Below, one piece after another: positions 1,292 to 59,873 of a stretch of 64,000 nt of DNA. Position numbers and translations under genes: made by a program. The DNA is from Candidatus Omnitrophota bacterium. GTDB taxonomy: Bacteria; Omnitrophota; Gorgyraeia; Gygaellales; Profunditerraquicolaceae. Numbering within the stretch: position 1 is the stretch's first letter; each line of letters opens with the position of its first letter. The stretch lies in the NCBI GenBank assembly GCA_043812955.1, contig JBDRLN010000064.1, forward strand, positions 326 to 64,325, written 5' to 3'. Under the pieces are notes generated by a model, which was not told where the DNA came from, searched no databases, and saw only the letters and a program-made list of their open reading frames with translations.

Positions 1292-1376
1292 GGCTGCGAA
1301 TATTATTGCAGTAATTGACGCTGGTTTTAAAATCGGAGGTAAAATCAGCAGTTTAAGAGGCTCGGAAAAAACCGGG

Positions 1377-4154
1377 TTGATGCAAAAAGGGGTCAATCCG
1401 GTTTTTTCTTTTTTTTCGATGAAAAATAAAAAAACTTTATTAATCTTCTTATTGTTTCTTATTTCCTATTCTTTATTTGCTGAGCCTGCTTTTTCTGCCT
1501 CTCAGGCGGCGGAATATCTCTGCGATTTAGGTGTATCTTTTTATAAGCGCGAGAGATATGAAGAGGCGCTTACTGAATTTAAAAAAGCGCTGCTGCTTGA
1601 ACCCGATAATAAAATAGCCTTAAATTATATTAATAATGTATTTAACCGGCCTGTCCAACAGGCAGCCTCGCCTGTCGAACAACCTGCTAAAATAATTGCC
1701 CCGCAAGTACCTATCTTAGAGAACAAAAAAGTGACGACTAGCCGGGATCAAGTTATTCTTAGCGCTTTAAATAGCTACAGTCCAGTCCAATCTCAGGATA
1801 AATCTATTAATCAAACTTTACCTATTGATCAAACCGATAAAGCAATCAGTTATATAAATAGCAATACAGCCCAAGGAAATTTCGGAGTTCTGGATGTACA
1901 CGGAGATATTGCCTTGGGCGTAGGTTTTACTTCCGACGATTTTATCTGGAAAGATGCCAATGCTGATAAAATAGGAGTACCCAGGGAGAAAAACTGGAGG
2001 TATCTGTGGGGAGACGAAAAACACAATACTTACGATAAAAGGATTTTTGACCGCCTGAATCTGGATATAGAGACCAAATATAATTCGCCCTGGAATGCTT
2101 TTATGGAAATAACCGTTGATCCCTGGACTTTTGTCAGCAAGAAAGATGTGACCTCTTACTCTAATGTGGGAGGAGATTTTGTAGATATGCGTTTTAAATA
2201 CTGGTCTGCGGATAGAAGGACCGCAAATGAAGTATACCGTTCCAATAAAGGTAACATCATTAATATTAAACAGAATAAGGTTGTTGATGGTAAAACTAGC
2301 TTAATTAACCCTACGGCTTTAAATGATTGGTTTACAGATTTTAACCAGATAGAGCAGCAAAAACTTAAGATGGAATATCGCCCCTTAAGAAAACTCTGGA
2401 TTAATTATATAGACGATGATTATACCCTTAAGATATTTCCTATTTCCGACCAATTCGAGGCTTTAACTACCGATGACCCATTAAGGTTATCCGATAACCG
2501 TCACTATTGGGAAGAGGGCGCCTGGCTGGATGAGTATGAACCCAGCCGAGTATTTTATCCGGACAGCGGCTTAAAACCGATTAAAAGAGGAAGATGGATC
2601 AGGCGGATGTCTTTTTTTACCAAAGACAGCAGTGATGATTACCCCCATAGACTTACGTTTCTTCGGGGCGCGACTTTTAAAACTAAAACCGACTCTTATT
2701 CCTTTCAGGCCACCGTTGCTACTCCGATGAGCCTCTGGGATAATTACGAAAATTCAAATAGCATTAATTATGCTGACCGTTTAAAAATTCCTTTGAATGA
2801 AGACCTACAAGTAGGAATGGTTAATACGGTAAAATTAGGTTTAAATAAAGGCAGTTTAGAAGCCCAAAACGAGGTAACCGGGCTGGATTTAAATTATAAT
2901 TTGGATTGTAATACTGTCTTCTCGGCAGAAGCGGCGGGAAGTTACACCAGAATAGGGGAAGATCCAGGTTTTTACACAGTTTATCATGGGTTGGCAGGTA
3001 AAGCCGGGGTGAAATATGATGAATCTAAAGAGAAAAAAGGAGGATTTTATAAGTCAGAGGTATACGCTGCCCATATGGGCAATAAATTCTTTCCGGGATT
3101 GTCAAATTACCGTTATACCAGATCCGATGATCCAACTTTTAGCCGCAACGTATATTTTGATGAAATAGGTGATATTAATATACCCCTTATCTGGGGCGAT
3201 GGCATGGACCGGGCCAGAAATGCTCTCGGCCTTAAATTTAATATCAAAGGCTTTGATGAAAGATTAGACAATGATATCAAATACCGTAATGTCCATGAAG
3301 ATACGGGTAAATATGTTGAATCGGTATTAAGAGTAGAGTCTACCTATAAGGCTAATCCGCGATTAACTACTAAATTGTTGGGCTATTATCAGCATCTTCC
3401 CAAAACCCACGCTAATCAAGACCCCCTGCTTTACTTAAAGACTATGTATTCTTTAACCGATTATTTTTCTGATGTAGATGCCCATCCTGAAAATTCGGTA
3501 ATTGTCGATGATAAAGATCCGTCGATTGGCGCATTCGGAGCAGGGGCCCATTATTACCTGATAGAAGAATGCCTTGCGGTTGAAGGGATATATCAGCGGA
3601 CCAATGACCCGCTGGATTTTCCCCGTGGTTTGTTAAACGATAACTATGTTACAACCGAAACCCGAGATGGGCATCTCTGGGATAAAGTTTCTCCGTTTTT
3701 ATACGACCAGAGTTTTTTTAGCACGCCACCTTATCGATATTATGATATTGCCCGGACCAGATTGATCTACACCCCGAATGAAAAATGGGAACATATCTTT
3801 AGATTTACTTATAATGAAAATAGATACGCCAGCGCCTTAAATTATAATCTTAACCACGCCGGATTAGAAACAACCTATAAACCAAATGAGAAATGGACGT
3901 TTTGGGGTTCATATATTTACTCTCGCCTAATCGATGTTTATAAACAGAATGAACACCAAAAGAGAGCGGGATTCTCCGATGACCACCATAACTTTTTTAT
4001 CGGTACGGAATATAAATTAAACAAAGACGAAGCCTTTAACCTTCTTTATGGCGAGTTTGTGGCCTATAAGGAGCCTTTTCAACAGGGAAATTGGTGCCTT
4101 TCGTCCTTAGATACCCAGCACATAGTCCGCGTATCTTACCGCCGGAAATTCTAA
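1377..4154 (+). CDS. large secreted protein: N-terminal TPR repeats, then ~800-aa beta-rich region ending in aromatic ...YRRKF (possible outer-membrane beta-barrel)
   Basis: Signal peptide MKNKKTLLIFLLFLISYSLFA; real start more likely Met at 1419; TPR motif EEALTEFKKALLLEPDN; C-terminal Phe typical of OMPs. Confidence 0.55.
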   Translation: MMQKGVNPVFSFFSMKNKKTLLIFLLFLISYSLFAEPAFSASQAAEYLCDLGVSFYKRERYEEALTEFKKALLLEPDNKIALNYINNVFNRPVQQAASPVEQPAKIIAPQVPILENKKVTTSRDQVILSALNSYSPVQSQDKSINQTLPIDQTDKAISYINSNTAQGNFGVLDVHGDIALGVGFTSDDFIWKDANADKIGVPREKNWRYLWGDEKHNTYDKRIFDRLNLDIETKYNSPWNAFMEITVDPWTFVSKKDVTSYSNVGGDFVDMRFKYWSADRRTANEVYRSNKGNIINIKQNKVVDGKTSLINPTALNDWFTDFNQIEQQKLKMEYRPLRKLWINYIDDDYTLKIFPISDQFEALTTDDPLRLSDNRHYWEEGAWLDEYEPSRVFYPDSGLKPIKRGRWIRRMSFFTKDSSDDYPHRLTFLRGATFKTKTDSYSFQATVATPMSLWDNYENSNSINYADRLKIPLNEDLQVGMVNTVKLGLNKGSLEAQNEVTGLDLNYNLDCNTVFSAEAAGSYTRIGEDPGFYTVYHGLAGKAGVKYDESKEKKGGFYKSEVYAAHMGNKFFPGLSNYRYTRSDDPTFSRNVYFDEIGDINIPLIWGDGMDRARNALGLKFNIKGFDERLDNDIKYRNVHEDTGKYVESVLRVESTYKANPRLTTKLLGYYQHLPKTHANQDPLLYLKTMYSLTDYFSDVDAHPENSVIVDDKDPSIGAFGAGAHYYLIEECLAVEGIYQRTNDPLDFPRGLLNDNYVTTETRDGHLWDKVSPFLYDQSFFSTPPYRYYDIARTRLIYTPNEKWEHIFRFTYNENRYASALNYNLNHAGLETTYKPNEKWTFWGSYIYSRLIDVYKQNEHQKRAGFSDDHHNFFIGTEYKLNKDEAFNLLYGEFVAYKEPFQQGNWCLSSLDTQHIVRVSYRRKF

Positions 4155-4160
4155 TAATTA

Positions 4161-4212
4161 GGGGACGTTTCTATTTTTTTATTTGAAAAATTTGAAAAAA
4201 TAGAAACGTCCC
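4161..4212. repeat. Family-A palindrome copy 2: GGGGACGTTTCTATTTTTTT ... AAAAAATAGAAACGTCCC, between convergent genes; likely bidirectional terminator
   Basis: ~18-bp perfect stem, T-rich 3' flank on + strand; sits between the stop at 4154 (+) and the stop at 4221 (-). Confidence 0.8.
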
Positions 4213-4220
4213 GTTTGATT

Positions 4221-7200
4221 TTATTCTAAATAAATATCGATTTTTTTGATTTGCCTGTTGCGGATTTGTTCGGCGTAAGGCGAGGGTATGATTTCAGAAG
4301 TTATTTCTTTGGTATTTCCGGCCTGGTCAGATAGTATTATCTTCTTTATAAGAGCAGCGGCCTTACCAAACGTATTTTTCCTTTCCGGGTTATGGTATAT
4401 AACCGTGATTTTACTTAAAAAATTGAAAGTATAAGTTCTATCCTTCGAGAATAACCATCGCGGGAGAATAGGGCAGAACTTTAAATTTAATTCGTTTTTG
4501 TTATTCAAAACAAACGGCTGTTTTCCGATATTCATAACTAACCAGATATTTAAAAATTCCGCAGTTGAGCCGGAAAGGCGGGCTACAAATCCATTTCCAT
4601 GCAGTTTTTTATCCGGAAATACGCTGCTGACTAAAAATGACGAATTCTCTAGAATGCTCCTGCCGTAAACTTCAGGTTTTTGGAAAGGAATAAGGCAATT
4701 TTTAAAATCCTGAAAAAATTCTTCATAGAGCCCGCATTTAAGCAGTTCCAACAGATATTTATACTCCATATGCAGCCAGATAGATTCATTCTCTAGCCAG
4801 CCGGGAGTAAACACCCTGCAGCGCCCGATTTCTTCCGGCATGCTAGCCAGAGAAGAAGTTACTTTATACATCTTAAGTTTTTTATCGTAGAGCTGGCTTT
4901 TAAGGATTGCCTTATACATATTCTGGGCTTGGGCTTTATCCATTAGTCTTAAAGCATGAAAAGGTCCTTCCAAAAAGAAAGGCACTTTTTTCTGTTCAAA
5001 TTTCGTAGGTTTAATAAAGGGTGGTTCTAGGCTAACGAATTCTTCGACCACATTTATAAAATAGGAATAGTAAATGTTTTCTTTATTATCCCAGGCTTTA
5101 TTTAATCCTGAGTCTAATTTTTTTAGCGTATCTTCAAGTATGGTGATCAGCTCATCCCTATTAACCTGTTTTTCTTTTCCACTGACTCCAAAGTTAGTCT
5201 TCTGCCGATATTCCTCTTTTAAGGTGTGGGTTTTATCCCAGAAAATAAAGTCTTTATCATTAGTGTCAGTAGTAAAGTATTCGCGGATCAAAGCGCCTAA
5301 GCCAAAGAGCAGATTATATATTTCTTCAGCCAGAAACACATTTTCTATACTGTTTTTTTTGAGGCTTTCTTTTAAGAATATGGCCAGCCTTTTTAATTCA
5401 AAGGTTTCGCAACTTGATGATCCAAAAAGCGCGGGTAGACCGTTTAAGGAATCAAACCAGTTGGGCTTATCCGCCTCCATTTCAATACCTATTCCCGAGG
5501 GGTCAAGAGAAGCCAGCTTATTAGCTAAGATGCAGATCAATTTACCCGCGCAAGTGGTTTTATAAACTTCGCCTTGACCATGATCAGTCCTGGCTAAGCG
5601 CGGTGAGCTTACACGATTTTCCAACATCACTTTTTTTGAATCGTCAAAACCAACGGAATGCAATTGTTTAGGTAACCCATTGAGAAGAAGATATTTCTGG
5701 CAGCGGGGTTTTATAAACGTAAAATAATCATAAAACGTAAAATCTTTCTTTTCAAAGGCTAATTCTTTTAATTTCTCAGGATAGATTGCCAGGTAGTTTT
5801 CTATCAAGTCCAGATTATAGGCCCAGTGGTCAGTCCAAAAACCTTCATGAAAACTGGCTTCCTGGGATTTTTGGCAGTGAGAAAGAAGAATATTAATGAA
5901 TTCATCGGGTTTTACCTTCAGTTTAATTATTTTTTCTTCAAAAAATATAATGACCTCGCCGGGAGTAAAAGATTTGCTGAAGAACTCCGCTGTTTCCGGA
6001 GTAATTTTTCCCTGAATAAGAGTTTCTAATACCAGAAAAAACTGCTCCGGATTAGTCAGCCTGAATAAAGCGCCTTTGACTACTAAAGGGTTAAATCCGT
6101 CCAGTTGAATCAAGTTTAAGAACATGGTAATGTTTTCATCAGTTACCTCAGGATTAAACCAGTTGTCGCACCTGCGATTCTGATTAATGTCGCGGTAATT
6201 ACCATTACCTTGGGAGAAATAAGTAGGATCAAGTTCGTACTTATTATAGTCCCTTTCCAGATCTCCGTGTTTGCGGGAATAGAGATAAAATATGGTTTTA
6301 TGGAGTTTAGACTTGAAGCTGACCGGATAGCCACCGCGCATAATATTATCCAGGTAAGTCTGTTTGGCATAAAGGTCGAATTCTCTCGACGAGCTGCGGG
6401 TCGATATATCGTTCTGCAAATTTTCGATGGTCTCTTTATTCTGTTTCTTCTTTAAGTCTAAATAGCCTGCCTTCGTTATGCGGGAGAGGGAGGAATTCAG
6501 TATTTTTAGGTTGCGCATATTCCCGATTATGGAGTAATAAGTCTTCTGGGAATTGGGAGGAAGTTCAAAATCCAGGTCCAGAAAAGCGCAGGGGGTTTTA
6601 TTCTGAGTTATCTGGTTCTTGGGATAACGGAAAATTTTATTGCCCAGGAAATGATAGGGACAGGAAAAATCGCTTACCGGCCCAAATATGCATTGAGGAT
6701 CGACTACAGGCTTGATAATCTTTGAATGATTATTTTTGTCAAAGTGAAAACCCAGGAAGAAATTACCCTCTTTGATATGGATGACTTGTGGGCGGTCGAT
6801 CGGGTCGACATCTACTTTAAAGAAAGGAACATGATTCTCCAAATTCTCAACTTTCATCCAGGCCTCGACCGTACGGCTTAGTTTTTTCAAAAACAGATTA
6901 TATATTCCATACGGGACTATTTTAGGCACACCGTCCAACAACTGAATTTTACGGGTTTTTTTACCGGTATTTTTTATGGTTACGATCCTGACCAAGCCGG
7001 CATAGGAATCTTGGGGGATATTAAAATATTCAACTTCGGTTTTAAGTCCGAGAGTGGTATTTTCTTCCTGGATATTCAGGTCATGCGAAGTAATGGACAT
7101 CCTGGTATTTAGGTCAAAATCTATATTAGTAAACCCGTTATGAAAGGGCTCGTAAAATATATTATCTTTAGAGGAGAGTATCTTTACAAAAGTGCGGAAT

Positions 7201-7986: not shown

Positions 7987-9468
7987 ATGGCCAGCCTAAA
8001 ACTTAATACCTTAACCGCACACGAATTATTGGAGAAACTTGATATTCAAGAAGTTTCTCCAGATGAGATTGTGGTTTGTCTCCAGGAGCAGATAAAAAAA
8101 GTCGATCCTATCGTCCGGGCTTATGCGCGCCTGGAGAAAGGCCTTAAAGATAAGCAGATTATGGGCAAGGGTGGGATTTTACAAGGGCTTCCAGTCTCCC
8201 TAAAAGATAATATTTGCACAGAAGGTTATAATACTGAATGCTGTTCCCGCATATTAGATGGTTTTAAGCCTCCTTACGATGCCACGGTAATCCGTAAATT
8301 AAAAGAAGCGGGAGCAACCGTCTTAAATATAAAAACCAATATGGATGAGTTTGCCTTTGGTTCTTCTACGGAGAATTCCTGTTTTGGCCCTACTCATAAT
8401 CCCTGGAATTTAGATTGTGTTCCCGGGGGTTCTTCGGGCGGCTCAGCCGCGGCTGTTGCCAGCAATGAAGCTGTATTTGCTATAGGAACGGATACTGGAG
8501 GCTCTATACGCCAACCAGCATCTTTTTGTGGCGTAGTCGGCCTTAAGCCGACCTATGGAAGAGTCTCCCGTAATGGATTGATTGCTTTTGCTTCAAGCCT
8601 TGATCAGATCGGCCCGATTACTAAAGATGTAAGAGACAGCGCGATATTAATGAATGTTATATCCGGATATGATCCTTATGACTCAACATCAGTCAATATA
8701 GGCGTTCCCGATTATACTAAATCATTAGTCAAGGATATCCATGGTTTAAAAATAGGCATACCCAAAGAATATTTTATTGAAGGAATGGATTCGGAGATAA
8801 AAAAGTTGACTGAAGACGCGATAAATAAATTAAAGGCCTTAGGGGCTGTTTGTACGCTGGTATCACTACCGCATACCGAATACGCGACTGCGGTTTATTA
8901 TATATTAGCTACTGCCGAGGCTAGTTCTAATCTATCCAGGTATGATGGCGTACAATACGGGCTGCGCAGCGAAAACCGTAAACCTTACCTGTCCGGCAGG
9001 CAGGCGGAAGCCGATAACCGGTTAATCGGCATGTATAAAACAACTCGGGGGAATGGTTTTGGCGACGAGGCAAAAAGAAGAATAATCCTGGGAACATTCG
9101 CCCTTTCACATGGATACTATGACGCTTATTACCTGCGGGCATTAAAAGTACGTACTTTGATAAAACAGGATTTTAACCGAATATTCAAGGAATACGATTG
9201 TATTGCCGCTCCTACAACGCCTTCTCCTGCGTTTAAAATCGGTGAGAGGGCGCAGGACCCTTTGAGTATGTACCTATCTGATATTTATACGATTTCGGCA
9301 AATTTAGCCGGTCTACCGGCGATATCCGTTCCTTGTGGTTTAACTAAAAATAATCTTCCGGCGGGATTACAGATTTTAGCTAAGCCGTTTGCGGAAGAGA
9401 CAATTTTTAAAGTAGCTTATACGTATGAACAAAATACGCCTTGGCACTTGCAGAGACCTAGTATTTAG
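7987..9468 (+). CDS. gatA: Asp/Glu-tRNA amidotransferase subunit A (amidase signature family)
   Basis: Amidase signature [12 protein letters not shown] and [12 protein letters not shown]. Confidence 0.95.
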
Positions 9469-15821: not shown

Positions 15822-15830
15822 CCTTTTTTT

Positions 15831-15863
15831 ACACCCCGTAGGTGTAATACACCTACGGGGTGT
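15831..15863. repeat. Family-C hairpin: ACACCCCGTAGGTGT-AAT-ACACCTACGGGGTGT (15-bp perfect stem, 3-nt loop) at the dgkA stop
   Basis: Read directly; a near-identical hairpin occurs at 59730-59762. Confidence 0.8.
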
Positions 15864-15881
15864 ACGGATAGATCAAGTTTT

Positions 15882-22491: not shown

Positions 22492-22844
22492 TAATCGGGA
22501 CCGGAGTGGATATAACTGAGGTAAAACGGCTTAAACAAGCGATAGACAGGTGGGGTAACGGTTTTTTAAACCGGGTTTTTACCGATAAAGAGCTTAAGAA
22601 CGCCTTGGCCCATGTAAATTTCTTCCAGCATCTGGCCGGCAGGTTTGCGGCTAAAGAAGCGGTATTTAAAGCTTTGGGTGAAGCTGACCTGCTCTGGAAA
22701 GACGTCCAGATCTTAAATGATAAACAGGGCAAACCGTATTGCGCCATACTTAACGGCAAAGCCAGGAATAAAGATATTCATATATCAATTTCTCACGTAA
22801 AAAATTATGCAGTTGCCAACGCGATTGTCGCGAAGAAGAGCTGA
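22488..22844 (+). CDS. acpS: holo-[acyl-carrier-protein] synthase
   Basis: MIIGTGVDITEVKRL start overlapping the pdxJ stop; 4'-phosphopantetheinyl transferase fold. Confidence 0.85.
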   Translation: MIIGTGVDITEVKRLKQAIDRWGNGFLNRVFTDKELKNALAHVNFFQHLAGRFAAKEAVFKALGEADLLWKDVQILNDKQGKPYCAILNGKARNKDIHISISHVKNYAVANAIVAKKS

Positions 22845-23652
22845 TTGCCATAAGGGGGATTTTGGCCATATATTTATTATAGCTGGTTCTTTGAAATATT
22901 CCGGCGCCGGCGTATTATGCGCTGAAGCGGCCTTGCGCAGCGGCGCGGGATTGGTAACTTTAGGCGTGCCCCAAAGTTTAGCTATATCCTTAATAAGAAT
23001 AAAGGCAAAAGAGGTAATGCTTCTGCCTCTGCCTGAAAATAATGATGGGAGTTTTTCCCTGTCTGGCTATGAACAGATAAGAGATTTTGCTTCCAAGATC
23101 AATGTATTAGCAATAGGCCCGGGCGCCGGAGAGAACAAGTCCACGCAAGGTTTAATCCGCAAGATTGTATTAAAAATAAATAAACCTATGGTTATTGATG
23201 CGGATGGGTTAAATGCGTTAGTTAGGCATCTAAATCTAGCGCGGGGTGTCAGAATATTAACACCCCATCCTGGAGAGATGGCTAAGCTAACAGGTATTAA
23301 AATAAAAGAGGTCCAAAAAAATAGAAAAGTGATTGCCAGAAAGATCAGTTCTGATTATAATACCACGGTTGTTTTAAAAGGCCGGAATACCATAATTGCG
23401 GACTACAACGGGAGTTTTTATCTTAATAAAACCGGTAATCCGGGTATGGCGACTGCCGGAAGCGGAGATGTATTAACCGGGATGATCGCGGCTTTTTTAG
23501 GCCAGGGTTTAACGGCGTTCCAGGCAGCCAAATACGCGGTTAACCTGCATGGCTTAGCCGGTGATCTAGCAGCTAAAGAAAAAACCCAAATGGGCATGCT
23601 AGCCTCGGATATTATCGCTAAGATACCAGAGGCAATCAAAAAATGCAGTTAA
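22807..23652 (+). CDS. nnr: ADP-dependent NAD(P)H-hydrate dehydratase (Nnr carbohydrate-kinase domain)
   Basis: HKGDFGHIFIIAGS ... GDVLTGMIAAFLGQG motifs. Confidence 0.8.
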   Translation: MQLPTRLSRRRADCHKGDFGHIFIIAGSLKYSGAGVLCAEAALRSGAGLVTLGVPQSLAISLIRIKAKEVMLLPLPENNDGSFSLSGYEQIRDFASKINVLAIGPGAGENKSTQGLIRKIVLKINKPMVIDADGLNALVRHLNLARGVRILTPHPGEMAKLTGIKIKEVQKNRKVIARKISSDYNTTVVLKGRNTIIADYNGSFYLNKTGNPGMATAGSGDVLTGMIAAFLGQGLTAFQAAKYAVNLHGLAGDLAAKEKTQMGMLASDIIAKIPEAIKKCS

Positions 23653-23653
23653 T

Positions 23654-23726
23654 GCCGGCTTAGCTCAGTTGGTAGAGCGTCTGTTTTGTAAACAGATGGT
23701 CGGGGGTTCAATTCCTCTAGCCGGCT
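23654..23726 (+). tRNA. tRNA-Thr (anticodon UGU)
   Basis: Cloverleaf: acceptor GCCGGCT/AGCCGGC, anticodon loop TTTGTAA, T-loop TTCAATT. Confidence 0.85.
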
Positions 23727-23794
23727 TTATTAAGTTCATAGGTGATAGTTCATAGCTTAATAGTAAAATCTATAAACTACGAACAGTGAACTAC

Positions 23795-23888
23795 GAACTA
23801 AAATGGGCAGGTACCCAAGTGGCTAAAGGGGACAGACTGTAAATCTGTTGCACTTCGTGCTTCGGGGGTTCGAAACCCTCCCTGCCCA
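23795..23888 (+). tRNA. tRNA-Tyr (anticodon GUA) with long variable arm
   Basis: Acceptor GGGCAGG/CCTGCCC, anticodon loop CTGTAAA, long variable arm, T-loop TTCGAAA. Confidence 0.85.
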
Positions 23889-23968
23889 TTAAAAAATTTT
23901 ACCAAAAGGTGTAACGGGGCGTGGCCTCCGTTAAAAAGTATGGCGGATTCACCACGCAAGATGCAATA

Positions 23969-24260: not shown

Positions 24261-24266
24261 AAATTT

Positions 24267-24322
24267 GGGGACGTTTTTATTTTTTATGCCTTTATCAGTA
24301 GAAGAAAAATAGAAACGTCCCC
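24267..24322. repeat. Family-A palindrome copy 3: GGGGACGTTTTTATTTTTT ... AAAAATAGAAACGTCCCC
   Basis: Read directly; immediately upstream of the PilZ gene at 24351. Confidence 0.8.
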
Positions 24323-24350
24323 AAATAAACACGACTAGGAATAACCGGCC

Positions 24351-26357: not shown

Positions 26358-27649
26358 AAAAAATAAACGTAGGAATAATTGGTTTCGGAAATGTCGGTTC
26401 GGGGGTTATCAGGATCTTGCAGGAGAGATCCGGATTACTATCCCAAAAGGTAGGTCTGGGCATCCAGGTCAAGAAAATCTGCGATAAGGATATTTTATCT
26501 AAACGCAATGTCAATATTAACAAAGGACTTTTGACTAAAAATCCTCTGGATATTATAAATAACCCTCAGATAGATATAGTGGTGGAATTAATGGGAGGTA
26601 TACATCCGGCCAAGGAGCTTATCTTAGGCGCTTTAAAAAAAGGGAAGAACATCGTCACTGCTAACAAAGCTTTATTGGCCCTTTATGGTAAAGAATTATT
26701 TGCTACTGCCTTTGACTGCGGAAAAAATATTTATTTTGAGGCAGCGGTCGGAGCAGGTATTCCGATCATTAAATCGCTCAAAGAAGGATTAGTGGCTAAC
26801 AAATTCAATAGTATCTACGGCATAGTCAATGGGACCTCTAATTTTATACTCTCTCAGATGTATAATAATAATTGTTCCTTTAATGAAGCCTTAAAAGAAG
26901 CTAAGGCCAGGGGATTTGCTGAAAAAGACCCGACCCTGGATATTGAAGGAATTGATTCAGCCCATAAGTTAATAATACTTACCTACCTTTGCTTTGGAAG
27001 GCTGATCTCGCTTGATGATATTTATATTGAAGGAGTTTCTCGTATATCCCTGGCTGATATTAATTATGCCAAGGAATTAAACCTCAAGGTAAAATTATTA
27101 GCCATTGCTAAAAAAGAGGGCGACAGCCTGGATGTCCGGGTCCACCCGACCCTGATACCTAATGAACACATGCTCTCTTCTGTAGATGAAGTCAATAACG
27201 CTATTTATGTATCTTCGGACCTGGCCGGCAATCTTTTATTCTATGGCCCGGGGGCCGGTCAATCATCAGCGGCCTCGGCCGTAGTCTCGGATATAATTGA
27301 TTTAACCAATGATATAAAAGCCGGTTTATTCCGGTCGACCTTGAATATTATCACTGATAAGTCAATAAAAAAATTGTCCAAAATAGATGAGATACAAAGC
27401 CGCTACTATATCCGGATGCTAGTTTTAGATAAGCCTGGCGTACTGGCTAAGCTATCCGGGGTATTATCTAAATTCGGAATCAGTATCGCTTCGGTAACCC
27501 AGAAAGAGAGAAGAAAAGCCCAGAGCGTGCCCATTGTTATGATTATCCACGAAGCTAAAGAAAAGAATTTAAGAGAGGCTTTACGGATTATTGATCGCCT
27601 GGATATTGTGAAGGAAAAATCCGTGGCTATCCGGATGGAGAGAGTATGA
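26354..27649 (+). CDS. hom: homoserine dehydrogenase (with C-terminal ACT domain)
   Basis: N-terminus [15 protein letters not shown]; Hom catalytic and ACT regions. Confidence 0.9.
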
Positions 27650-28773
27650 TTTCCGATAAAGCATATAAAGGCTTGATAATTAAGTATCGACAATATCTGC
27701 CGGTAACCAAAAAAACGCCGGTGATTACCCTTAATGAGGGAAATACTCCTCTGATTTATGCCAATTACCTGAGCAAGATGATTGGAAAGGGTTTTGAAGT
27801 TTATTTAAAATACGAAGGATTGAATCCCACTGGTTCATTTAAAGACCGGGGCATGACCCTGGCAATATCAAAAGCCTGCGAAGAAGGCTCAAAAGCGGTG
27901 ATCTGCGCTTCAACCGGTAATACCTCAGCATCCGCAGCTGCCTACGCTGCCAGGGCAGGAATCAAATGTATCGTGCTTATACCCAGCGGAGCAATTGCTT
28001 TAGGTAAATTAAGCCAAGCCTTGATCCACGGAGCTACTGTTTTAGCTGTAGACGGTAATTTTGACGATGCGCTAAATCTGGTTAAGGAGATTACAGCTAA
28101 ATACCCCATTACCTTAGTAAATTCACTTAATCCTTATCGTATTGAAGGGCAAAAAACCGCCAGTTTTGAAATCTGCGATTTCTTGACCGATGCACCAAAT
28201 TTTCAGATTATGCCCGTAGGAAATGCCGGAAATATTACTGCCTACTGGAAAGGTTATAAGGAGTATAAAAAAATAGGTAAATCCGTTAAATTACCCAGAA
28301 TGCTGGGTTTCCAGGCTGAAGGTTCGGCCCCCATTGTAAGAGGCCATCCGATTAAAAATCCTGAAACTATTGCCACGGCGATAAGGATAGGCAATCCTGC
28401 CAGCTGGAAACAGGCAGAACAAGCCCGCGACGAATCCAACGGTCTTATTGACCTGGTCTCGGATAAAGAAATAATCCAAGCCTATAAACTATTATCGATA
28501 AAAGAAGGGGTGTTTGTAGAACCAGCATCAGCAGCTTCTATTGCCGGATTATTAAAATTAGCTAAAAAGGGCTATTTTGAGCGGTTGTCGGTTAGCGGTT
28601 GTCGGTTAGCGTCCGCTCACCGTTCACCGCGAACCGCGAACCGAAAGCTTCGCATTGTATGTATACTCACCGGACATGGCCTGAAAGATCCGGACAGGGC
28701 AATTAAAACTATTAAAGCGCCAAAGATCATAAAACCAAATATGAAGGCGATATTGAAAGAAATTGGATACTAG
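27646..28773 (+). CDS. thrC: threonine synthase carrying a ~20-aa in-frame insertion encoded by a GC-rich palindromic element
   Basis: PLP site SFKDRGM; the C-terminus [44 protein letters not shown] is ~20 aa longer than canonical ThrC (KKG...IVCxLTGHG). Confidence 0.9.
28579..28650. repeat. GC-rich repetitive/palindromic insert inside thrC: tandem CGGTTGTCGGTTAG x2, then CACCGTTCACCGCGAACCGCGAACCG
   Basis: Sharp local GC rise; direct repeats with inverted symmetry (GAGCGG...CCGCTC; CGGTT.../...AACCG); reading frame preserved. Confidence 0.7.
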
Positions 28774-29515
28774 CAAAACTAAAAACTCAAAGCGCAAGAC
28801 TCAAAGTTTAAAACTTAAAGCTAAAAACTTTAAGCGCAAAACTCAAAGCTTAAAGGGAAAAAAGGTATTAATTACTGCCGGACCGACTTGGGCAGCCATA
28901 GATGATGTAAGGGTAATCTCTAATACTGCCACAGGAGAAACCGGAAGGCTTTTAGCTGAGAAATTAACAACTAAAGGCGCTAAGGTTGCTCTTCTAATTA
29001 ACGCGGAAAACAGATGCTGGCTAAATAAAAAAATTAAAATTCTGACCTTTAGGTTCTTTGACCAGCTCAAAAAACATATTGTCAAAGAAGTGTCATCCGG
29101 AAGATACGATATTTTTATACATTCAGCCGCAGTTTCTGATTATAGGCCGGCTAAATCAGTTAAAGGAAAAATCAATTCGGGTAAATTTAAGCTCCGCCTG
29201 GATTTAGTCCCTACCCCTAAAATCATTAACCGGATAAAGAAAATTGATAGTTCTTTGTTCTTAGTTGGTTTCAAATACGAGCCTGGTAATGATAAAAAAA
29301 CTTTGATTCAGAAGGCAAAAAAACTAATGTCTAAGTCAAACGCGGATATTATTGTTGCCAATACATCAGGCAAAAAAGGTTACCAAGCGTATATCATAAA
29401 CAGGGATAAGATATTCTGTGGTCCGGTCTATAATAAATCGGTAATGATCAATAGCCTTATACAGGCGATAAACAGGTCATTTGGTTTAAAGAAAACGTTA
29501 CAAAAAAGCAATTAA
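28763..29515 (+). CDS. coaB: phosphopantothenate--cysteine ligase (stand-alone CoaB domain, no CoaC) with Lys-rich repetitive N-terminus
   Basis: [30 protein letters not shown] matches the CoaB core; N-terminal KRKTQSLK repeats are encoded by tandem DNA repeats. Confidence 0.7.
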
Positions 29516-33862: not shown

Positions 33863-36544
33863 ATGCCTGAACTTGACAAGCAGTATAACCCCAAAGAAAC
33901 CGAAGATAAATGGTATAAATTCTGGGAAGAAAATAACCTCTTTGCTGCAAAACCTCAATCCCCTAAAAAACCATTCAGCATAGTAATTCCGCCTCCTAAT
34001 GTAACCGGCATCCTGCATATGGGCCATGCCCTGAATAATACTATTCAGGACATTCTCATCCGCTATCATAGGATGAAAGGGGAAGAATCATTATGGATGC
34101 CCGGGACTGACCACGCCGGGATCGCTACCCAGAATGTAGTGGAGAAATCAATTGCTAAAGACGGACTGAAGCGTCAGGATCTAGGCCGGGATAAATTTAT
34201 CCAGAGGGTCTGGCAATGGAAGGAAGAATACGGCTCGACCATTATCCGTCAGCTTAAAAAATTAGGGTCTTCCTGTGATTGGCAGAGGATCCGCTTTACC
34301 ATGGATGAAGAATACTCGAAATCCGTGGTCGAGGTTTTTGTTAGGCTTTATGAAAAAGGCCTGATCTATCAAGGCAATTATATTATCAACTGGTGCCCGC
34401 GCTGCCAAACCGCGCTATCCGATGAAGAAGCCCCTCACCATGAGCTCCAGGGAAATTTATATTATTTACGATATCCGCTTAAAGATTACCCGCAAGATTT
34501 CGTAGTTGTTGCAACTACCCGTCCGGAAACAATGCTGGGGGATACTGCGGTAGCAGTAAATCCTAAAGACAAACGCTACCAGAAATTAATCGGTAAAATC
34601 CTTATCCTGCCGCTGATTAAGCGCGAAATTAAAATTATCGCTGATTCTATGGTAGATACAAAATTCGGTACAGGGGCGGTTAAGGTTACTCCGGCCCATG
34701 ACCCGAATGATTACGCTTTAGGCAAAAAACACAACCTGGAATTCGTGAATGTAATGTATCCTGATGCCCGAATGAATCAAAATGCCGCAGATTATAAAGA
34801 TATGGACAGGTTTGAAGCTAGAGAGGTCATCCTGGAAGATTTAAAAGAACAGGGGCTTTTAGAAAAAATCGAACCTCATAATTTGTCCGCCGGACACTGC
34901 TACCGCTGTCACACCATAATCGAACCTTATCTATCCAAACAGTGGTTTGTGAAAATGAAACCTTTGGCTATACCGGCTATAGAGGTAGTTAAAAAAGGTA
35001 AAATAAAATTTTATCCCAGCCGCTGGACTAAAGTTTATCTTAACTGGATGGAGAATATCCAGGATTGGTGCATATCCCGTCAGATCTGGTGGGGACATCG
35101 CTTGCCGGTATATTATTGTAAGGATTGCCTGCAACAAGCCTGCGGGTCCACAGTCCACAAAGTCCATCAGTCCACAACAAACAGAAAAGGTATAATAGTT
35201 TCCTGCGTAAAACCTGAAAAATGCCCAGACTGCGGCTCAAGCGATATATATCAGGATGAGGATGTCTTAGATACCTGGTTTTCTTCCTGGCTCTGGCCTT
35301 TTGCAACTTTTAGAAGTGAATTAGACCTGAAATATTTCTATCCCACTTCAACCCTGGTAACTGCTCCTGAAATAATTTTCTTCTGGGTAGCCAGAATGAT
35401 CATGGCTGGGATGGAATTCCTAAAAGACATCCCCTTTAAAGATGTCTACATCCACGGCACTGTCAGGGATATAGAAGGTAAAAAAATGTCCAAATCATTG
35501 GGAAATATAATTGATCCCTTGGAAATTATTAATGAATACGGAACTGATGCCCTGCGTTTCAGCTTAATTTCTATAACTGCCCAGGGCCAGGATGTATTCC
35601 TCTCTAAGGAAAGGTTTGAACAGGGAAGGAATTTTGCTAATAAGATCTGGAATGCCTCCAGATTTATCCTGATGAACCTGGGATCCGAGAATACAAAAGC
35701 AGATCTATGTGCTTTCTTTAAACAAGAGCGATTAGATACGGCTAATCGCTGGATCTTAAGCCGTTTTTACTCAACAGTTAAACAAGCCTATAAATTACTG
35801 GATAACTACCGTTTTAATGAAGCGCTGAACCTGCTTTATCATTTTTTTTGGCATGAATTTTGCGATTGGTATTTAGAGATCATCAAAGCGGATATCAAAA
35901 ACCCCCATAATCAGGTAGTGATGTATAAAATACTGGAAAAATTCTTAAAGGCAATTCATCCTTTTATGCCTTTTATCAGCGAAGAGATTTGGCAAAAACT
36001 TCCCCATCAGGACATATCAATAATGGTTACACGGGTTGTGCATATCCAGGAAGAGATTATTGATAAAAAAATTGAAAATAAAATGGCTTTGTTGCTTGAA
36101 TTAATTACTACCATTAGGAATATGCGCTGGGAATTAGAGATATTACCCCAGGCCTGCGTAGATGTCAAAATCTGTACTTTAAACAAGGCTAATAGGGCTT
36201 TTATAGGGCAATCTTCGGCTTGCGTTAAAAACCTGGCAAAACTAATGAATCTTGTTTTAGAATCAGAATATGGGCCTGCGCAGGGTCAATTTGCCGTGGT
36301 TTTAAAGGATATGCACGTGGTTATTCCTCTTGCCGGACTGATAGATATTGAAAAATATAAGCAAAAAACATGGGAAAGAATCAAAAAAACCGATTCCGAT
36401 ATTAAAGCCAAAGGAATAATGTTGGCAAATAAAGATTTTGTTAAAAGGGCTCCCGCGCACATCGTAGAAAAGGAGAAACTTAAACTCCAGGAACTTAATG
36501 AAACCCTTAATAAACTGAAAGGAGTCATCCATGGCCTTGGATAA
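33863..36544 (+). CDS. valS: valine--tRNA ligase
   Basis: HMGH and KMSKS motifs, editing domain, C-terminal coiled coil. Confidence 0.95.
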   Translation: MPELDKQYNPKETEDKWYKFWEENNLFAAKPQSPKKPFSIVIPPPNVTGILHMGHALNNTIQDILIRYHRMKGEESLWMPGTDHAGIATQNVVEKSIAKDGLKRQDLGRDKFIQRVWQWKEEYGSTIIRQLKKLGSSCDWQRIRFTMDEEYSKSVVEVFVRLYEKGLIYQGNYIINWCPRCQTALSDEEAPHHELQGNLYYLRYPLKDYPQDFVVVATTRPETMLGDTAVAVNPKDKRYQKLIGKILILPLIKREIKIIADSMVDTKFGTGAVKVTPAHDPNDYALGKKHNLEFVNVMYPDARMNQNAADYKDMDRFEAREVILEDLKEQGLLEKIEPHNLSAGHCYRCHTIIEPYLSKQWFVKMKPLAIPAIEVVKKGKIKFYPSRWTKVYLNWMENIQDWCISRQIWWGHRLPVYYCKDCLQQACGSTVHKVHQSTTNRKGIIVSCVKPEKCPDCGSSDIYQDEDVLDTWFSSWLWPFATFRSELDLKYFYPTSTLVTAPEIIFFWVARMIMAGMEFLKDIPFKDVYIHGTVRDIEGKKMSKSLGNIIDPLEIINEYGTDALRFSLISITAQGQDVFLSKERFEQGRNFANKIWNASRFILMNLGSENTKADLCAFFKQERLDTANRWILSRFYSTVKQAYKLLDNYRFNEALNLLYHFFWHEFCDWYLEIIKADIKNPHNQVVMYKILEKFLKAIHPFMPFISEEIWQKLPHQDISIMVTRVVHIQEEIIDKKIENKMALLLELITTIRNMRWELEILPQACVDVKICTLNKANRAFIGQSSACVKNLAKLMNLVLESEYGPAQGQFAVVLKDMHVVIPLAGLIDIEKYKQKTWERIKKTDSDIKAKGIMLANKDFVKRAPAHIVEKEKLKLQELNETLNKLKGVIHGLG

Positions 36545-38216: not shown

Positions 38217-40196
38217 ATGGATGGATTCAAACTAACCTCGCGTTACAAACCCCGCGGAGACCAGCCTAAAGCGATACAAGGATTAAATCAAAGCGTTTTA
38301 AGTAGGAATAAATATCAGACCCTTTTAGGCGTAACCGGTTCAGGTAAAACCTTTACCCTGGCAAATATTATCCATAAGGTAAATCTCCCTACCCTGGTAA
38401 TATCTCATAATAAAACCCTGGCCGCCCAGTTATATTCTGAATTTAAGGAATTCTTTCCCCATAATGCCGTGGAATATTTTGTCAGCTACTATGATTATTA
38501 TCAGCCAGAGGCCTACATGCCAGCAACCGATACCTATATTGAAAAAGACGCTTCCATTAATGACCGACTGGACCGCCTGCGCTTATCCGCTACCAGTAGC
38601 CTGATGTCCCGCCAGGACGTGATTATCATAGCCTCGGTATCCTGCATTTACAATCTAGGTTCGCCTGAAGAATACCGGGAATCCCTAGTTTTTATAGAAA
38701 GAGGTGAAGTTGCCTCCAGGGATAGCCTGATCTCCCGCTTTATCCGGATACAATATGAGCGTAATGATTATGAATTTGTAAGAGGCAGGATCCGGGTAAG
38801 AGGGGATGTAGTAGAAATTTACCCAACTTATAGCGAAAAAGCCCTGCGCCTGGAATTCTTTGGTGATATAATTGAAAAAATACAGGAAATAGACCCGGTA
38901 TCTGCGAAAGTTTTAAATCAGTTAGAAAAAATTGCTGTTTATCCGGCAAAACATTTTATCGCCCCATCTGACAGGATTGATAGCGCAATTAAATCAATCG
39001 AATCAGAACTTAAGGTTCAATTCGACTTCTTAAAAGGCAAAAATAAGCTCTTGGAAGCCCAGCGCCTGGAATCCCGGACTAAATACGACATGGAGATGCT
39101 AAAAGAAATCGGTTATTGTCACGGGATCGAGAATTATTCCCGCCAACTCTCAAACCGGCCCGCCGGCTCAAGGCCGTATTGTTTGATCGATTATTTCCCT
39201 AAAAAATTCTTAACCATTATAGACGAATCCCATGTAACTATACCTCAAATTAGAGGAATGTATAACGGGGATAAGGCCAGAAAGGAAACTCTGGTGGATT
39301 ATGGTTTTAGGCTTCCATCCTGCTTAGATAACAGACCTTTAAAATTTAGCGAATTTGAAAAGGTCATCCAGCAGGTTATTTTTACCTCAGCTACTCCGGA
39401 TGAATATGAAACTAAGAAAAGCAAAAATAAAATATTTGAACAAATAATCCGGCCTACCGGGTTAGTTGACCCACAAATCATCATCAGGCCTACCGAAGGG
39501 CAGATCCCAGATTTAATCCAGGAGGTTAAGAAACGGTCTAAGCAAAACAGCCGGATCTTATTAACTACCTTGACTAAAAGAATGGCCGAAGATTTGACCA
39601 GTTACCTTCAAGAAAAAGGACTTAAGGTTAAATATTTGCATTCCGAGATCAAAACTATCGAACGCTCTAAAATACTCAGAGCCTTAAGGCGGAAGGAATT
39701 TGACTGCCTGGTAGGGATTAATCTTTTAAGAGAAGGTCTGGATCTACCCGAAGTATCCTTGGTAGCGATCTTAGACGCGGATAAAGAAGGCTTCCTACGA
39801 TCGGCAACATCACTGATCCAGGTTTCCGGGAGGGCGGCCCGCAATATTAACGGCTGCGTAATAATGTACGCCGATACAATAACTGGATCAATGAAAAAAG
39901 CGATTACCGAAAGCTCACGGCGCAGGAAGATCCAACTGGAATTTAACCGGAATAATAAAATCACTCCTAAAGGAATAGTAAAAGCGATAAAATCAGGAAT
40001 AGAGGATATGGAAAGCGCGGAAGAATTTGTCCAAGACCTTACAGGTGTGAAAAAAGAGGAATACGAGTTGAAAAATTATATTTCCGAGTTAGAATATGAG
40101 ATGGAATTAGCCAGCCGTAACCTGCATTTTGAAAAAGCGGCTCAGCTAAGGGACAAGATAAAAGACATTAAAGACAGCCTGAAGTCTAAAGGCTAA
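38217..40196 (+). CDS. uvrB: excinuclease ABC subunit B
   Basis: Walker A GVTGSGKTFT, helicase motifs, C-terminal UVR domain. Confidence 0.95.
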   Translation: MDGFKLTSRYKPRGDQPKAIQGLNQSVLSRNKYQTLLGVTGSGKTFTLANIIHKVNLPTLVISHNKTLAAQLYSEFKEFFPHNAVEYFVSYYDYYQPEAYMPATDTYIEKDASINDRLDRLRLSATSSLMSRQDVIIIASVSCIYNLGSPEEYRESLVFIERGEVASRDSLISRFIRIQYERNDYEFVRGRIRVRGDVVEIYPTYSEKALRLEFFGDIIEKIQEIDPVSAKVLNQLEKIAVYPAKHFIAPSDRIDSAIKSIESELKVQFDFLKGKNKLLEAQRLESRTKYDMEMLKEIGYCHGIENYSRQLSNRPAGSRPYCLIDYFPKKFLTIIDESHVTIPQIRGMYNGDKARKETLVDYGFRLPSCLDNRPLKFSEFEKVIQQVIFTSATPDEYETKKSKNKIFEQIIRPTGLVDPQIIIRPTEGQIPDLIQEVKKRSKQNSRILLTTLTKRMAEDLTSYLQEKGLKVKYLHSEIKTIERSKILRALRRKEFDCLVGINLLREGLDLPEVSLVAILDADKEGFLRSATSLIQVSGRAARNINGCVIMYADTITGSMKKAITESSRRRKIQLEFNRNNKITPKGIVKAIKSGIEDMESAEEFVQDLTGVKKEEYELKNYISELEYEMELASRNLHFEKAAQLRDKIKDIKDSLKSKG

Positions 40197-40336
40197 AATT
40201 AAAAGTCTAAAGGACGAATAAAGATTAAAGGTAAAAGATAAAAAGTATAAAATCATATGTTTAAATCTTTGATCTTGGAGTTTTGGTCTTCCTTTAAGAT
40301 TTAAACTCCAATCTTTAAACCTTAAGGTCACTAAAT

Positions 40337-41071: not shown

Positions 41072-41106
41072 AGATGGGAAGAAACGGGGTCAGAATTTTT
41101 TTTAAT

Positions 41107-41163
41107 TAGGGGACGTTTCTATTTTTAATTACTTTAAAAGAAAAAAATAGAAACGTCCCCTAA
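41107..41163. repeat. Family-A palindrome copy 4: GGGGACGTTTCTATTTTT ... AAAAATAGAAACGTCCCC, followed by partial direct repeat TCGTCCCCTAAT
   Basis: Read directly; preceded by a half-copy of family B (GGGGTCAGAATTTTTTTT, 41083-41101). Confidence 0.8.
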
Positions 41164-41180
41164 TCGTCCCCTAATTTTGC

Positions 41181-59740: not shown

Positions 59741-59762
59741 GTGGAGTCCACCTACGGGGTGG
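59730..59762. repeat. Family-C hairpin: CCACCCCGTAGGTGG-AGT-CCACCTACGGGGTGG (15-bp stem, 3-nt loop) spanning the histidine kinase stop codon
   Basis: Read directly; same core as the hairpin at 15831-15863. Confidence 0.8.
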
Positions 59763-59873
59763 AATATAGTCAAAGTAATTGACAACCAGGCTAAATAGCG
59801 ATATCTTGTACATCTGTACCCATGATCAAAGTCATAATCTTTGATGTTTTTTTAAAACAGGAGAAGAGCTTAA

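Follow-up and report, generated by a model that had tools for sequence, protein, structure and literature searches.

The threonine synthase gene (thrC) of a Candidatus Omnitrophota bacterium has an in-frame insert that consists of two opposed arrays of 7-nt repeats. The gene lies on a stretch of 64,000 nt (the window) from a metagenome-assembled genome (MAG), and the source genome was searched within these 64 kb. The insert is probably a heptanucleotide microsatellite with an inverted duplication, situated in a permissive loop that is a hotspot throughout the phylum, and not a transposed module. It is moderately notable alone and more so for what it suggests about the genome as a whole; it differs from described heptanucleotide repeats in that in-frame heptamer arrays lie at the same loops of conserved housekeeping enzymes across the phylum. 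Hereafter, the label L denotes the genome loci or contigs compared and the label P the homologous proteins.

The ThrC of the window is identical to P0001, deposited as 'MAG: threonine synthase [Candidatus Omnitrophota bacterium]', and aligns from end to end with the solved structures 2zsj, 6cgq, and 1uim, the insert being the sole break. At this point there is a 20-residue gap against 6cgq and 1uim, while the match to 2zsj divides in two. The insert lies 3′ of KKGYF and ahead of the strand leading into the LTGHGLKD motif, and the ThrC motifs are all retained on either side of it. An earlier reading of the DNA, made from the sequence alone (the sequence-only reading), had placed about 20 extra residues here and had taken the frame to be preserved. 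Both statements were borne out, as the open reading frame (ORF) runs open through the insert and the loop has 25 residues in place of the 5 found at the lower end among 80 related loci. The alignment of orthologues, which had been proposed as a check, delimited the insertion (Table 1) and showed the same loop to vary across Omnitrophota. In an AlphaFold2 model (63-sequence alignment; TM-score 0.63 to 2zsj), residues 317-329 have a predicted local distance difference test score (pLDDT) below 50, and the insert lies between the helix 293-313 and the strand 335-341. The mean pLDDT of this mediocre model is only 70.6, and the model was used solely for the low confidence of the insert and for its position between helix and strand.

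At the DNA level, the loop reads GAG (CGGTTGT CGGTTAG)x2 CG TC CG (CTCACCG TTCACCG CGAACCG CGAACCG) AAAGCTTCGC. The arrays occupy positions 28582-28643 (62 nt; about 63 nt as an element), and the extra DNA amounts to 60 nt compared with the shortest loop. By exact matching, two tandem copies of the 14-mer CGGTTGTCGGTTAG fill the left array. Tandem repeats were called by Tandem Repeats Finder (TRF) and by separate period-7 scans. TRF described the left array as period 14 (2.3 copies at 100%) and period 7 (4.6 copies, 28580-28611) and the right array as period 7 (ACCGCGA, 2.6 copies, 28626-28643), and the period-7 scans delimited the latter to 28613-28644 and 28612-28646. The reverse complement of the right array is CGGTTCG CGGTTCG CGGTGAA CGGTGAG, a unit type matching the left arm. 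The insert is thus two opposed heptamer arrays that meet at a centre almost without a spacer. Since a unit of 7 nt is not a multiple of three, the arrays are read in all three frames and the peptide has a period of 7 aa.

The sequence-only reading had called this DNA GC-rich, repetitive, and palindromic, and its peptide Arg/Ser-rich, and each of these descriptions held. The GC content is 0.61-0.65 against a window mean of 0.40 (standard deviation 0.08 for 60-nt windows), and the highest CpG density of the window is found here (11 CpG per 60 nt). The inverted repeat has 24-nt arms that are 79% complementary and 9 nt apart. Fold z-scores compare the energy with that of shuffled sequences: as single-stranded DNA, the 75-nt loop sequence folds at -20 kcal/mol with z = -3.2 (1 of 200 shuffles as good) and its opposite strand with z = -3.0 (0 of 200), and as RNA with wider flanks the value is z = -1.9. 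Allowing at most one mismatch, CGGTTNNCGGTT has 11 matches in the window, where 2.7 are expected and none of 100 shuffles reached 11; five of the 11 fall within the insert. Of the 25 residues of the peptide, 11 are either Arg (6) or Ser (5).

Is the loop also expanded in other Omnitrophota? In 120 aligned ThrC homologues of the phylum (76-90% identical), it is expanded in about 84% and has 8 residues or fewer in only 19. The loops range from 5 to 33 aa and have unrelated sequences, while the remainder of ThrC is highly conserved, and their lengths group near 7, 13, 19-20, and 25 aa. Identical loop residues number 187 at an offset of 7, as against at most 95 at any other offset, and many loops have a peptide repeat at this offset, such as KRNTQYARRNT, RRAACGVRRAA, and KHGTRYTVHGT. 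The loop DNA was compared in 80 genome loci and 6 contigs. Among the 46 loops with at least 6 extra aa, 22 have 7 as their best DNA period, as compared with 85 of 920 (9%) size-matched control segments of coding sequence taken from the same genes. At exactly the codon position of the thrC insert, relatives carry other heptamer arrays with different units: (CGAACAC)x4 in L002 and L022, (CGCACAA)x4 in L031, (CGATTAC)x5 in L046, (GTGCGTC)x4 in L043, (TTACGAG)x4 in L008, and (TCCARNC)x4 (TTMAAGC)x2 in L081, the closest relative (90% identity, syntenic). A segment shared with relatives in non-repetitive form, by which the sequence-only reading would have recognized a mere linker, is therefore not what was found; the relatives carry different segments, about half of which clearly have period 7.

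The frame is intact at the loop in all 80 readable thrC loci, L063 being cut by a contig end before the loop. No frameshifted thrC allele was found among them, and the 3 loci that failed the search pattern are truncated by a contig end or have VTGHG instead of LTGHG. The LTGHGLKD motif is kept in relatives with anything from 5 to 33 loop residues. When the ThrC core was placed in a neighbour-joining tree, the window fell into one group with L086, which has inverted arrays, L001, which has no insert, and P0003, which has a 12-aa loop; the same group also holds L084 with a different GC-rich hairpin and L081 with a different array. Within clusters of 90% identity, the loops range from no insert to 23 extra residues; inside single clusters they can read KRKAR, SRQSGIPPLAGKRAACSMQRAAR, or KKTGVTKSPSHQVTR. 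The unrelated loops inside these clusters and the mixed tree group indicate that the loop changes much faster than the rest of ThrC. A separate observation concerns the peptide SRQSGIPP(K/L)AGK, which recurs in the thrC loops of P0009, P0016, P0030, P0039, P0094, L010, and L084, lineages that are scattered on the ThrC tree. It is encoded by a GC-rich palindrome, TTTTCCCGCC...GCGGGAAAA.

The relatives form a graded series from a direct array to a palindrome. L002 and L022, at its start, have the direct A/C-rich array alone. In L085, a single inverted unit (CGGTTAT CGG) adjoins four direct ones, the loops of L082 and L083 read (CGGTTCT CGGTTAT)x2 CGG (CCGAACA)x3, and L086 has (CGGTGCT)x4 facing CAGCACC TAACACC TAGCACC. 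The window stands at the end with four units against four opposed ones. In a comparison at the protein level, NRFSVIGSRLSAEHRTPNT and NRFSAEQRTANS, both from one 90%-identity cluster, differ by 7 aa in length, which would fit the gain or loss of three inverted units. The arms meet with no spacer (CGG followed by CCG) or almost none, as would be left by snap-back or template-switch copying. The hairpins of L082 (z = -3.45) and L086 (z = -3.85) can be set beside that of the window. Both arms of L086 have an altered core (GGTGCT / AGCACC), while those of the window and L082 have CGGTT / AACCG or ACACCG. This joint change may be due either to ongoing copying between the arms or to selection to pair.

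The following course of events may explain these observations. The coding sequence for a short surface loop of ThrC, itself disordered, would harbour an array of the NNNACCG / CGAACAC type that lengthens and shortens by slipped-strand mispairing. The survivors would be those that keep the frame, typically by steps of three units (21 nt or 7 aa), and whose units are free of stop codons whichever of the three frames is read. In the ancestry of the window, a part of the array may have been copied in reverse beside itself, by intra-array template switching or snap-back synthesis; the left arm (CGGTTNN)x4, rich in G and T, and with it the hairpin would have arisen in this way. Most likely the loop tolerates almost any sequence and the insert peptide is a passenger, either neutral or slightly deleterious. 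No evidence of a function of the peptide or the hairpin was found in Rfam, in terminator features, or in the relatives, and both appear to be dispensable because close relatives do without either. The same process may be at work all over these genomes, both between genes and in permissive parts of other housekeeping genes, such as the loops of valS and gatA and the 5′ end of coaB.

Table 1. Positions in the window of the thrC insert and of other heptamer arrays and inserts
Feature	Position	Strand	Basis or context
thrC, threonine synthase, host gene of the insert	27646..28773	+	375-aa ORF; 61% identical to Aquifex ThrC 2zsj, E 9e-145
Hypervariable loop of thrC, codons 312-336, 25 aa (shortest relatives 5 aa)	28579..28653	+	Gap against ThrC structures of the Protein Data Bank; loop lengths
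Left heptamer array CGGTTGT CGGTTAG CGGTTGT CGGTTAG, G/T-rich on the coding strand, encodes RLSVSGCRL	28582..28609	+	
Palindrome centre AGCG TC CGCT, apical stem and loop	28608..28617	.	Apical pairs in predicted folds
Right heptamer array CTCACCG TTCACCG CGAACCG CGAACCG (four NNNACCG units), opposite orientation, encodes HRSPRTANR	28616..28643	+	
About 12 degenerate A-rich heptamers (CTNAAAG type) directly 3′ of the thrC stop	28774..28855	+	TRF periods 7, 14, 42
valS in-frame array (GTCCACA)x4, between two CxxC zinc knuckles	35146..35177 (valS 33863-36544)	+	TRF, sequence
gatA in-frame GC-rich insert: GAAAACC GTAAACC, hairpin CCTGTCCGGCAGGCAGG, then GCCGATAACCGG	8968..9030 (gatA 7987-9468)	+	
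Opposed degenerate heptamer arrays, AGTTCAT type then ACTACGA type	23733..23800	.	Spacer between tRNA-Thr (23654-23726) and tRNA-Tyr (23804-23889)
A-rich heptamer arrays AAGTCTA, AAAGATA	40182..40252	+	3′ end of a uvrB-like ORF (38217-40196) and the following spacer

Heptamer arrays are not limited to thrC. In 1.18 Mb of DNA from the related loci, 79 period-7 arrays were found, whereas none of the other periods between 5 and 12 exceeded 15, and a stricter threshold left 51 against at most 10; in 200 kb of Escherichia coli K-12, no period-7 array was found. The arrays of the related loci lie in spacers, at the starts and ends of genes, and in the interiors of long ORFs. Those within ORFs have a mean A+C content of 66% on the coding strand. 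Codons restricted to A and C specify no amino acids other than K, N, T, Q, H, and P, and none of them is a stop codon. The bias would therefore be expected if arrays with stop codons or hydrophobic residues were filtered out, and such a filter would also explain the recurrence of similar units in different genes.

The zinc-knuckle loop of valyl-tRNA synthetase (ValRS), which holds the valS array of the window, adds from 0 to 27 aa across 35 related loci; the identity of valS is supported by the L081 orthologue, which has the Pfam domains of ValRS. The loop of GatA that receives the gatA insert is hypervariable in 120 GatA homologues and has peptides of 7-aa period, with repeats such as TENRKPKTENR, corresponding to (GAAAACC)n, and AEHRTPNTEHR, corresponding to (CGAACAC)n. 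Directly 3′ of thrC, the A-rich heptamers are spanned by the ORF 28763-29515 (CoaB/DFP-like) as an N-terminal extension. At this thrC-coaB junction, the array of the window is 42 nt (6 units) longer than that of the 90%-identical relative L081, and L084 has none.

A number of points weigh against the microsatellite explanation. Slippage and template switching as the mechanisms, and the neutrality of the peptide, are suggested by patterns in the compared sequences, and about half of the expanded thrC loops are without a clear period 7; these may be decayed arrays or something else. The window itself has few clean arrays, namely 2 of period 7 and 2 of period 14 (0.00 in shuffles), and because of this small period-7 excess the genome-wide claim rests mainly on the related loci. 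The joint change of the L086 arms could reflect selection for pairing and not neutrality. The unit CGAACAC recurs across genes, with (CGAACAC)x4 in both thrC and valS of L022 and further occurrences in GatA of P0155 and P0170. Such recurrence of units in different genes is not predicted by a pure in-situ origin, unless the selection filter makes the units converge. Finally, an insert in the PurL gene of the metagenomic contig L157 is nearly equal to the left arm of the window thrC insert joined to the hairpin of the window gatA insert.

The L157 insert bears on the comparison drawn in the sequence-only reading, in which the thrC insert was likened to the Rickettsia palindromic elements (RPE). 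The likeness in form remains, since the insert is in frame, GC-rich, hairpin-forming, and placed in a loop of low pLDDT, but the behaviour of a mobile element does not. It is unlikely that a small dispersed or mobile palindromic element, resembling an RPE, a miniature inverted-repeat transposable element (MITE), or a repetitive extragenic palindromic (REP) sequence, inserts in frame in thrC and in other genes, with the heptamer periodicity as a property of the element family. In L157, purL (1280-4402) has at 3440-3530 on the minus strand an in-frame ERLSVSGYRLARKPQTACLSGRQANRRPK, which contains the peptide ERLSVSGYRLA. Its DNA reads (CGGTTAT CGGTTAG)x2 CGCG (CAAACCG)x2 CCTGCCTGTCCGGCAGGCAGG CAAACCG and its peptide ERLSVSGYRLARKPQTACLSGRQ. 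The stretch ERLSVSG(C/Y)RLA is thus common to the window ThrC and L157 PurL, but the match came from a DNA search conditioned on CGGTT, so that independent evidence comes only from the flanks and from the two bases that vary in each unit. A second insert of the same kind, RLPAACLPDRQGQAG, is seen near the N-terminus of L157 PurL.

Other observations that speak for a mobile element concern recurrence, and the opposed arrays of the metagenome scan described below are among them. The hairpin CTGCCTnnCCGGCAGGCAG recurs in the thrC loops of L012 and L084, in the GatA loops of P0140 and P0166, and in gatA of the window, and its peptides LPVRQAG and LPGRQAG are found in the thrC loops of P0011, P0043, and P0004. 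However, a fuzzy search for the CTGCCT-type hairpin CTGCCTGTCCGGCAGGCAG in 1.25 Mb of related-loci DNA, the set used for unit and motif searches, gave only 4 matches, one of them weak, which is too few for a dispersed family. In L081, genes besides thrC also have GC-rich inserts that keep the frame. Two units from one genome differ by at most one mismatch in 13% of pairs and two units from different genomes in 3.6% (18 of 2000 permutations), but this is suggestive only, being partly due to adjacent inverted partners. A heptamer vocabulary common to the genomes was not established, as the between-locus value of 3.6% is close to a rough random expectation of 2-3% (14 rotations and strands).

The thrC insert itself does not behave as a mobile unit. 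A search for further copies of the 14-mer and of the palindrome arms, proposed in the sequence-only reading, found none in the window beyond chance-level matches with 1-3 mismatches, and the insert is a single copy built of 7-nt units where relatives have different arrays. Runs of at least 2 CGGT(T/G)NN or NN(A/C)ACCG units number 11 in the 1.25 Mb, and 10 of these lie in the thrC loop, which argues for an orthologous, locally evolving array and not for a dispersed family. At the borders (TTTGAG before the first CGG, AAAGCT after the last CCG), a comparison by eye with the insert-free L001 revealed no target-site duplication and no separate terminal repeats. Array dynamics account better for the graded series and for the steps of 7 aa than the insertion and excision of a unit would. 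The L157 match and the recurrence of units may reflect ectopic copying or convergence under the coding filter.

It is doubtful whether Omnitrophota and neighbouring candidate phyla have self-propagating heptamer-array elements, or a dedicated repeat-generating process, that would seed direct and opposed arrays. The vocabulary of such a process may include CGGTTNN/NNAACCG, CGAACAC, CGCAATA, CCTGCCT, and others, and its targets may be spacers and permissive loops. If this were true, such loops would be the fastest-evolving parts of otherwise conserved enzymes, and the arrays might be structured RNA or DNA signals or contingency-like switches.

The hairpin or the periodic array could also be a functional nucleic-acid signal under selection, for which the peptide is the price paid. 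Candidates would be an mRNA stem-loop close to the 3′ end of thrC, with an influence on decay, pausing, or translation, or an array for a single-strand-binding protein that reads 7 nt. This is improbable, although the hairpins are significantly stable in three lineages with different arms (the window, L082, and L086) and arrays often lie at gene borders. The two arms of L086 have changed jointly, as a pairing signal would require, but the co-variation is equally explained by repeated arm-to-arm copying. Opposed pairs are not peculiar to thrC. A metagenome scan with (CGGTTNN)x4 as the query gave at least 120 contigs (L087-L206) of 38-74% GC from soils, sediments, and waters, with the arrays often in the form (ACGGTTC)n or (GCGGTTR)n and, among the matches listed, mostly outside genes. 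In 26 of the 120 matches listed, an opposed (NNAACCG) array lies 10-170 nt away, and these opposed arrays look like a general bacterial architecture; opposed pairs have also been reported for the GGGAATC repeats of Xanthomonas (PMC4692102). The metagenomic arrays that appeared to lie inside ORFs are mostly in spurious long ORFs of high-GC contigs, and among the matches listed the only convincing coding case is L157 PurL.

On the other side, the signal would be dispensable, as close relatives have no insert (L001, P0272, and P0273) or a direct array only (L002 and L022). An Rfam search of 28300-29000 gave only a chance match to a snoRNA (E = 0.28), and an intrinsic terminator was ruled out at the insert by the lack of a T-run after the stem. 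The gatA insert and the array pair of the tRNA spacer (z = -0.85) fold no better than shuffles.

That the extra residues form a lineage-specific functional loop, selected at the protein level for regulation, interaction, or localisation, is very unlikely. They are in frame, Arg/Ser-rich, and placed in a flexible region, and most ThrC proteins of Omnitrophota are extended here, but the loops have unrelated sequences even in proteins that otherwise share 90% identity, their lengths span 5 to 33 aa, and the regularity is that of DNA (7-nt period, three frames) and not of codons or residues. An assembly or sequencing artefact is extremely unlikely: the exact protein P0001 is on a single contig (1 member) and repeats and hairpins are error-prone, but the frame is intact and the same architecture is found in independent NCBI, JGI, ENA, and Logan assemblies, with L082 equal to L083 in two sources, P0028 on 5 contigs, and clusters of 5-16 members.

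The explanation by a microsatellite places the thrC insert among the bacterial long simple sequence repeats (LSSRs). According to Mrazek et al. 2007, as cited in PMC4692102 and PMC4679880, heptanucleotides outnumber all other LSSR classes in most bacterial genomes and were attributed, as a proposal, to polymerase slippage. As these citing sources describe them, heptanucleotide LSSRs (Mrazek, Guo and Shah 2007) have head-to-tail 7-nt units in few copies, an over-representation of period 7, and differences in length and unit sequence between close relatives for which slippage was proposed. The thrC insert has 4 + 4 head-to-tail units and is above chance, its copy number and unit vary between relatives, and period 7 is in excess in the related loci. 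On the same account, LSSRs are mainly intergenic and coding repeats tend to have units that are multiples of three, whereas the arrays described here lie in frame in housekeeping enzymes and are read in all three frames.

The GGGAATC repeats of Xanthomonas and the GGGGA(T/C)T repeats of Nostoc are likewise heptamer arrays that differ between close relatives at a fixed position (Rehm et al. 2015, PMC4692102), and some of the Xanthomonas repeats form convergent opposite-strand pairs with possible stem-loops (PMC4692102). They have one G-rich, quadruplex-capable unit per genus and are intergenic (PMC4692102), whereas in Omnitrophota there are many units per genome, none of the G-quadruplex type, and some are coding. 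Heptamer direct repeats are also known as the TAACTGA repeats of marine Beggiatoaceae and cyanobacteria (MacGregor 2015, PMC4679880); in Beggiatoa, 10 sets are inside ORFs and one inverted repeat is at an ORF end (PMC4679880). There, a single unit is favoured, lying mostly just upstream of starts, and the intra-ORF cases are mostly at protein termini (PMC4679880), whereas the units are diverse here and occupy internal loops. The short tandemly repeated repetitive (STRR) sequences of cyanobacteria are, as cited in PMC4692102, three tandemly repeated heptanucleotides in Calothrix PCC 7601. An assignment to the STRR was rejected: the host is Candidatus Omnitrophota and the units are CGGTTNN / NNNACCG, whereas the STRR are consensus heptamers of heterocystous cyanobacteria.

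RPE, as described in PMC10969869 after Ogata et al. 2000, are palindromic, lie in frame in housekeeping genes, and are apparently compatible with the fold, which the thrC insert resembles in its palindrome and its in-frame position. In the same description, RPE are about 150 bp long (100-150) and form families with a conserved peptide and dozens of copies per genome. In contrast, the thrC insert has about 60 nt of 7-nt units, is single-copy in the 64 kb, and is replaced by unrelated sequences at the same site of relatives; size and copy number thus differ from those of RPE within the window. A MITE, which would have terminal inverted repeats with a target-site duplication, or a REP sequence, which would be a high-copy extragenic palindrome of 20-40 bp, was rejected, as no target-site duplication is visible at the borders and the insert is intragenic and single-copy in the window. 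A translational bypass element, as in T4 gene 60 or the mitochondrial byps, would break the frame or contain a stop and have to be skipped by ribosomes; it was rejected because the insert is open and in frame.

Contingency loci are phase-variable simple sequence repeats in the coding sequences of surface or restriction-modification genes of host-adapted pathogens, where they serve as on/off switches. The thrC array is similar in being a non-triplet repeat in a coding sequence, in which the change of one unit shifts the frame. Unlike contingency loci, it and its counterparts lie in essential enzymes of biosynthesis and translation, and only in-frame states were seen (80/80 thrC loci). Non-triplet microsatellites are expected to be purged from essential coding sequences. 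Yet 7-nt repeats occupy the same loops of ThrC, ValRS, and GatA phylum-wide, with a turnover faster than 10% protein divergence and in steps that apparently keep the frame. No description of heptamer arrays in Omnitrophota was found in the literature, and a 2026 preprint on complete Omnitrophota genomes has neither 'heptamer' nor 'palindrom'. If confirmed genome-wide, the arrays would provide a natural map of insertion-tolerant loops in conserved enzymes and a source of de novo disordered peptide segments. They would also imply that frameshifts in essential genes impose a measurable mutational load on bacteria with small genomes that are possibly host-dependent, and they would offer a clean system for studying why bacterial replication favours 7-nt slippage. 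Annotators would be cautioned that GC-rich palindromic in-frame inserts in MAGs need be neither assembly errors nor mobile elements.

Some further observations were made at the other genes and spacers. In valS of L022 (8130-8220), the palindrome GTCATTGCGAG...CTCGCAATGAC is inserted in the zinc-knuckle loop, and a TAA that lies in frame in the middle of it divides the gene into two ORFs of the same frame; this could be an error, a pseudogene, or a bypassed element. A further hotspot of ValRS lies near aa 205-235, where L081 has a 14-aa insert at aa 208, and GatA has a second indel region near aa 54. In the coaB-like ORF, the sole in-frame start is a TTG at 28763 that overlaps thrC, while the conserved start of CoaB (KVLITAGPT) comes after the array. 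Since only this TTG is in frame, the A-rich heptamers would be translated as a Lys-rich N-terminal extension. The AGTTCAT unit of the tRNA spacer forms clean arrays also upstream of thrC in L002, and in L075. In L081, the carbohydrate-kinase gene (4782-5690) has at about 5214-5276 a 21-aa GC-rich, partly palindromic in-frame insert LLDTRRLPTACPLARLGQVDG, which is missing from the orthologue in the window (22807-23652).

Two small repeat families of other kinds were noticed in the window, both outside long ORFs. Three near-perfect hairpins, GGGGACGTTTCTATTTTT(N15-20)AAAAATAGAAACGTCCCC, are located at 4162-4212, 24263-24326, and 41105-41164; this is a true multi-copy palindrome, terminator- or REP-like and unrelated in sequence to the thrC insert. 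Two perfect palindromes of 35 nt, T(A/C)CACCCCGTAGGTG(T/G)A N T(A/C)CACCTACGGGGTG(T/G)A, at 15830-15864 and 59729-59763, are the second family.

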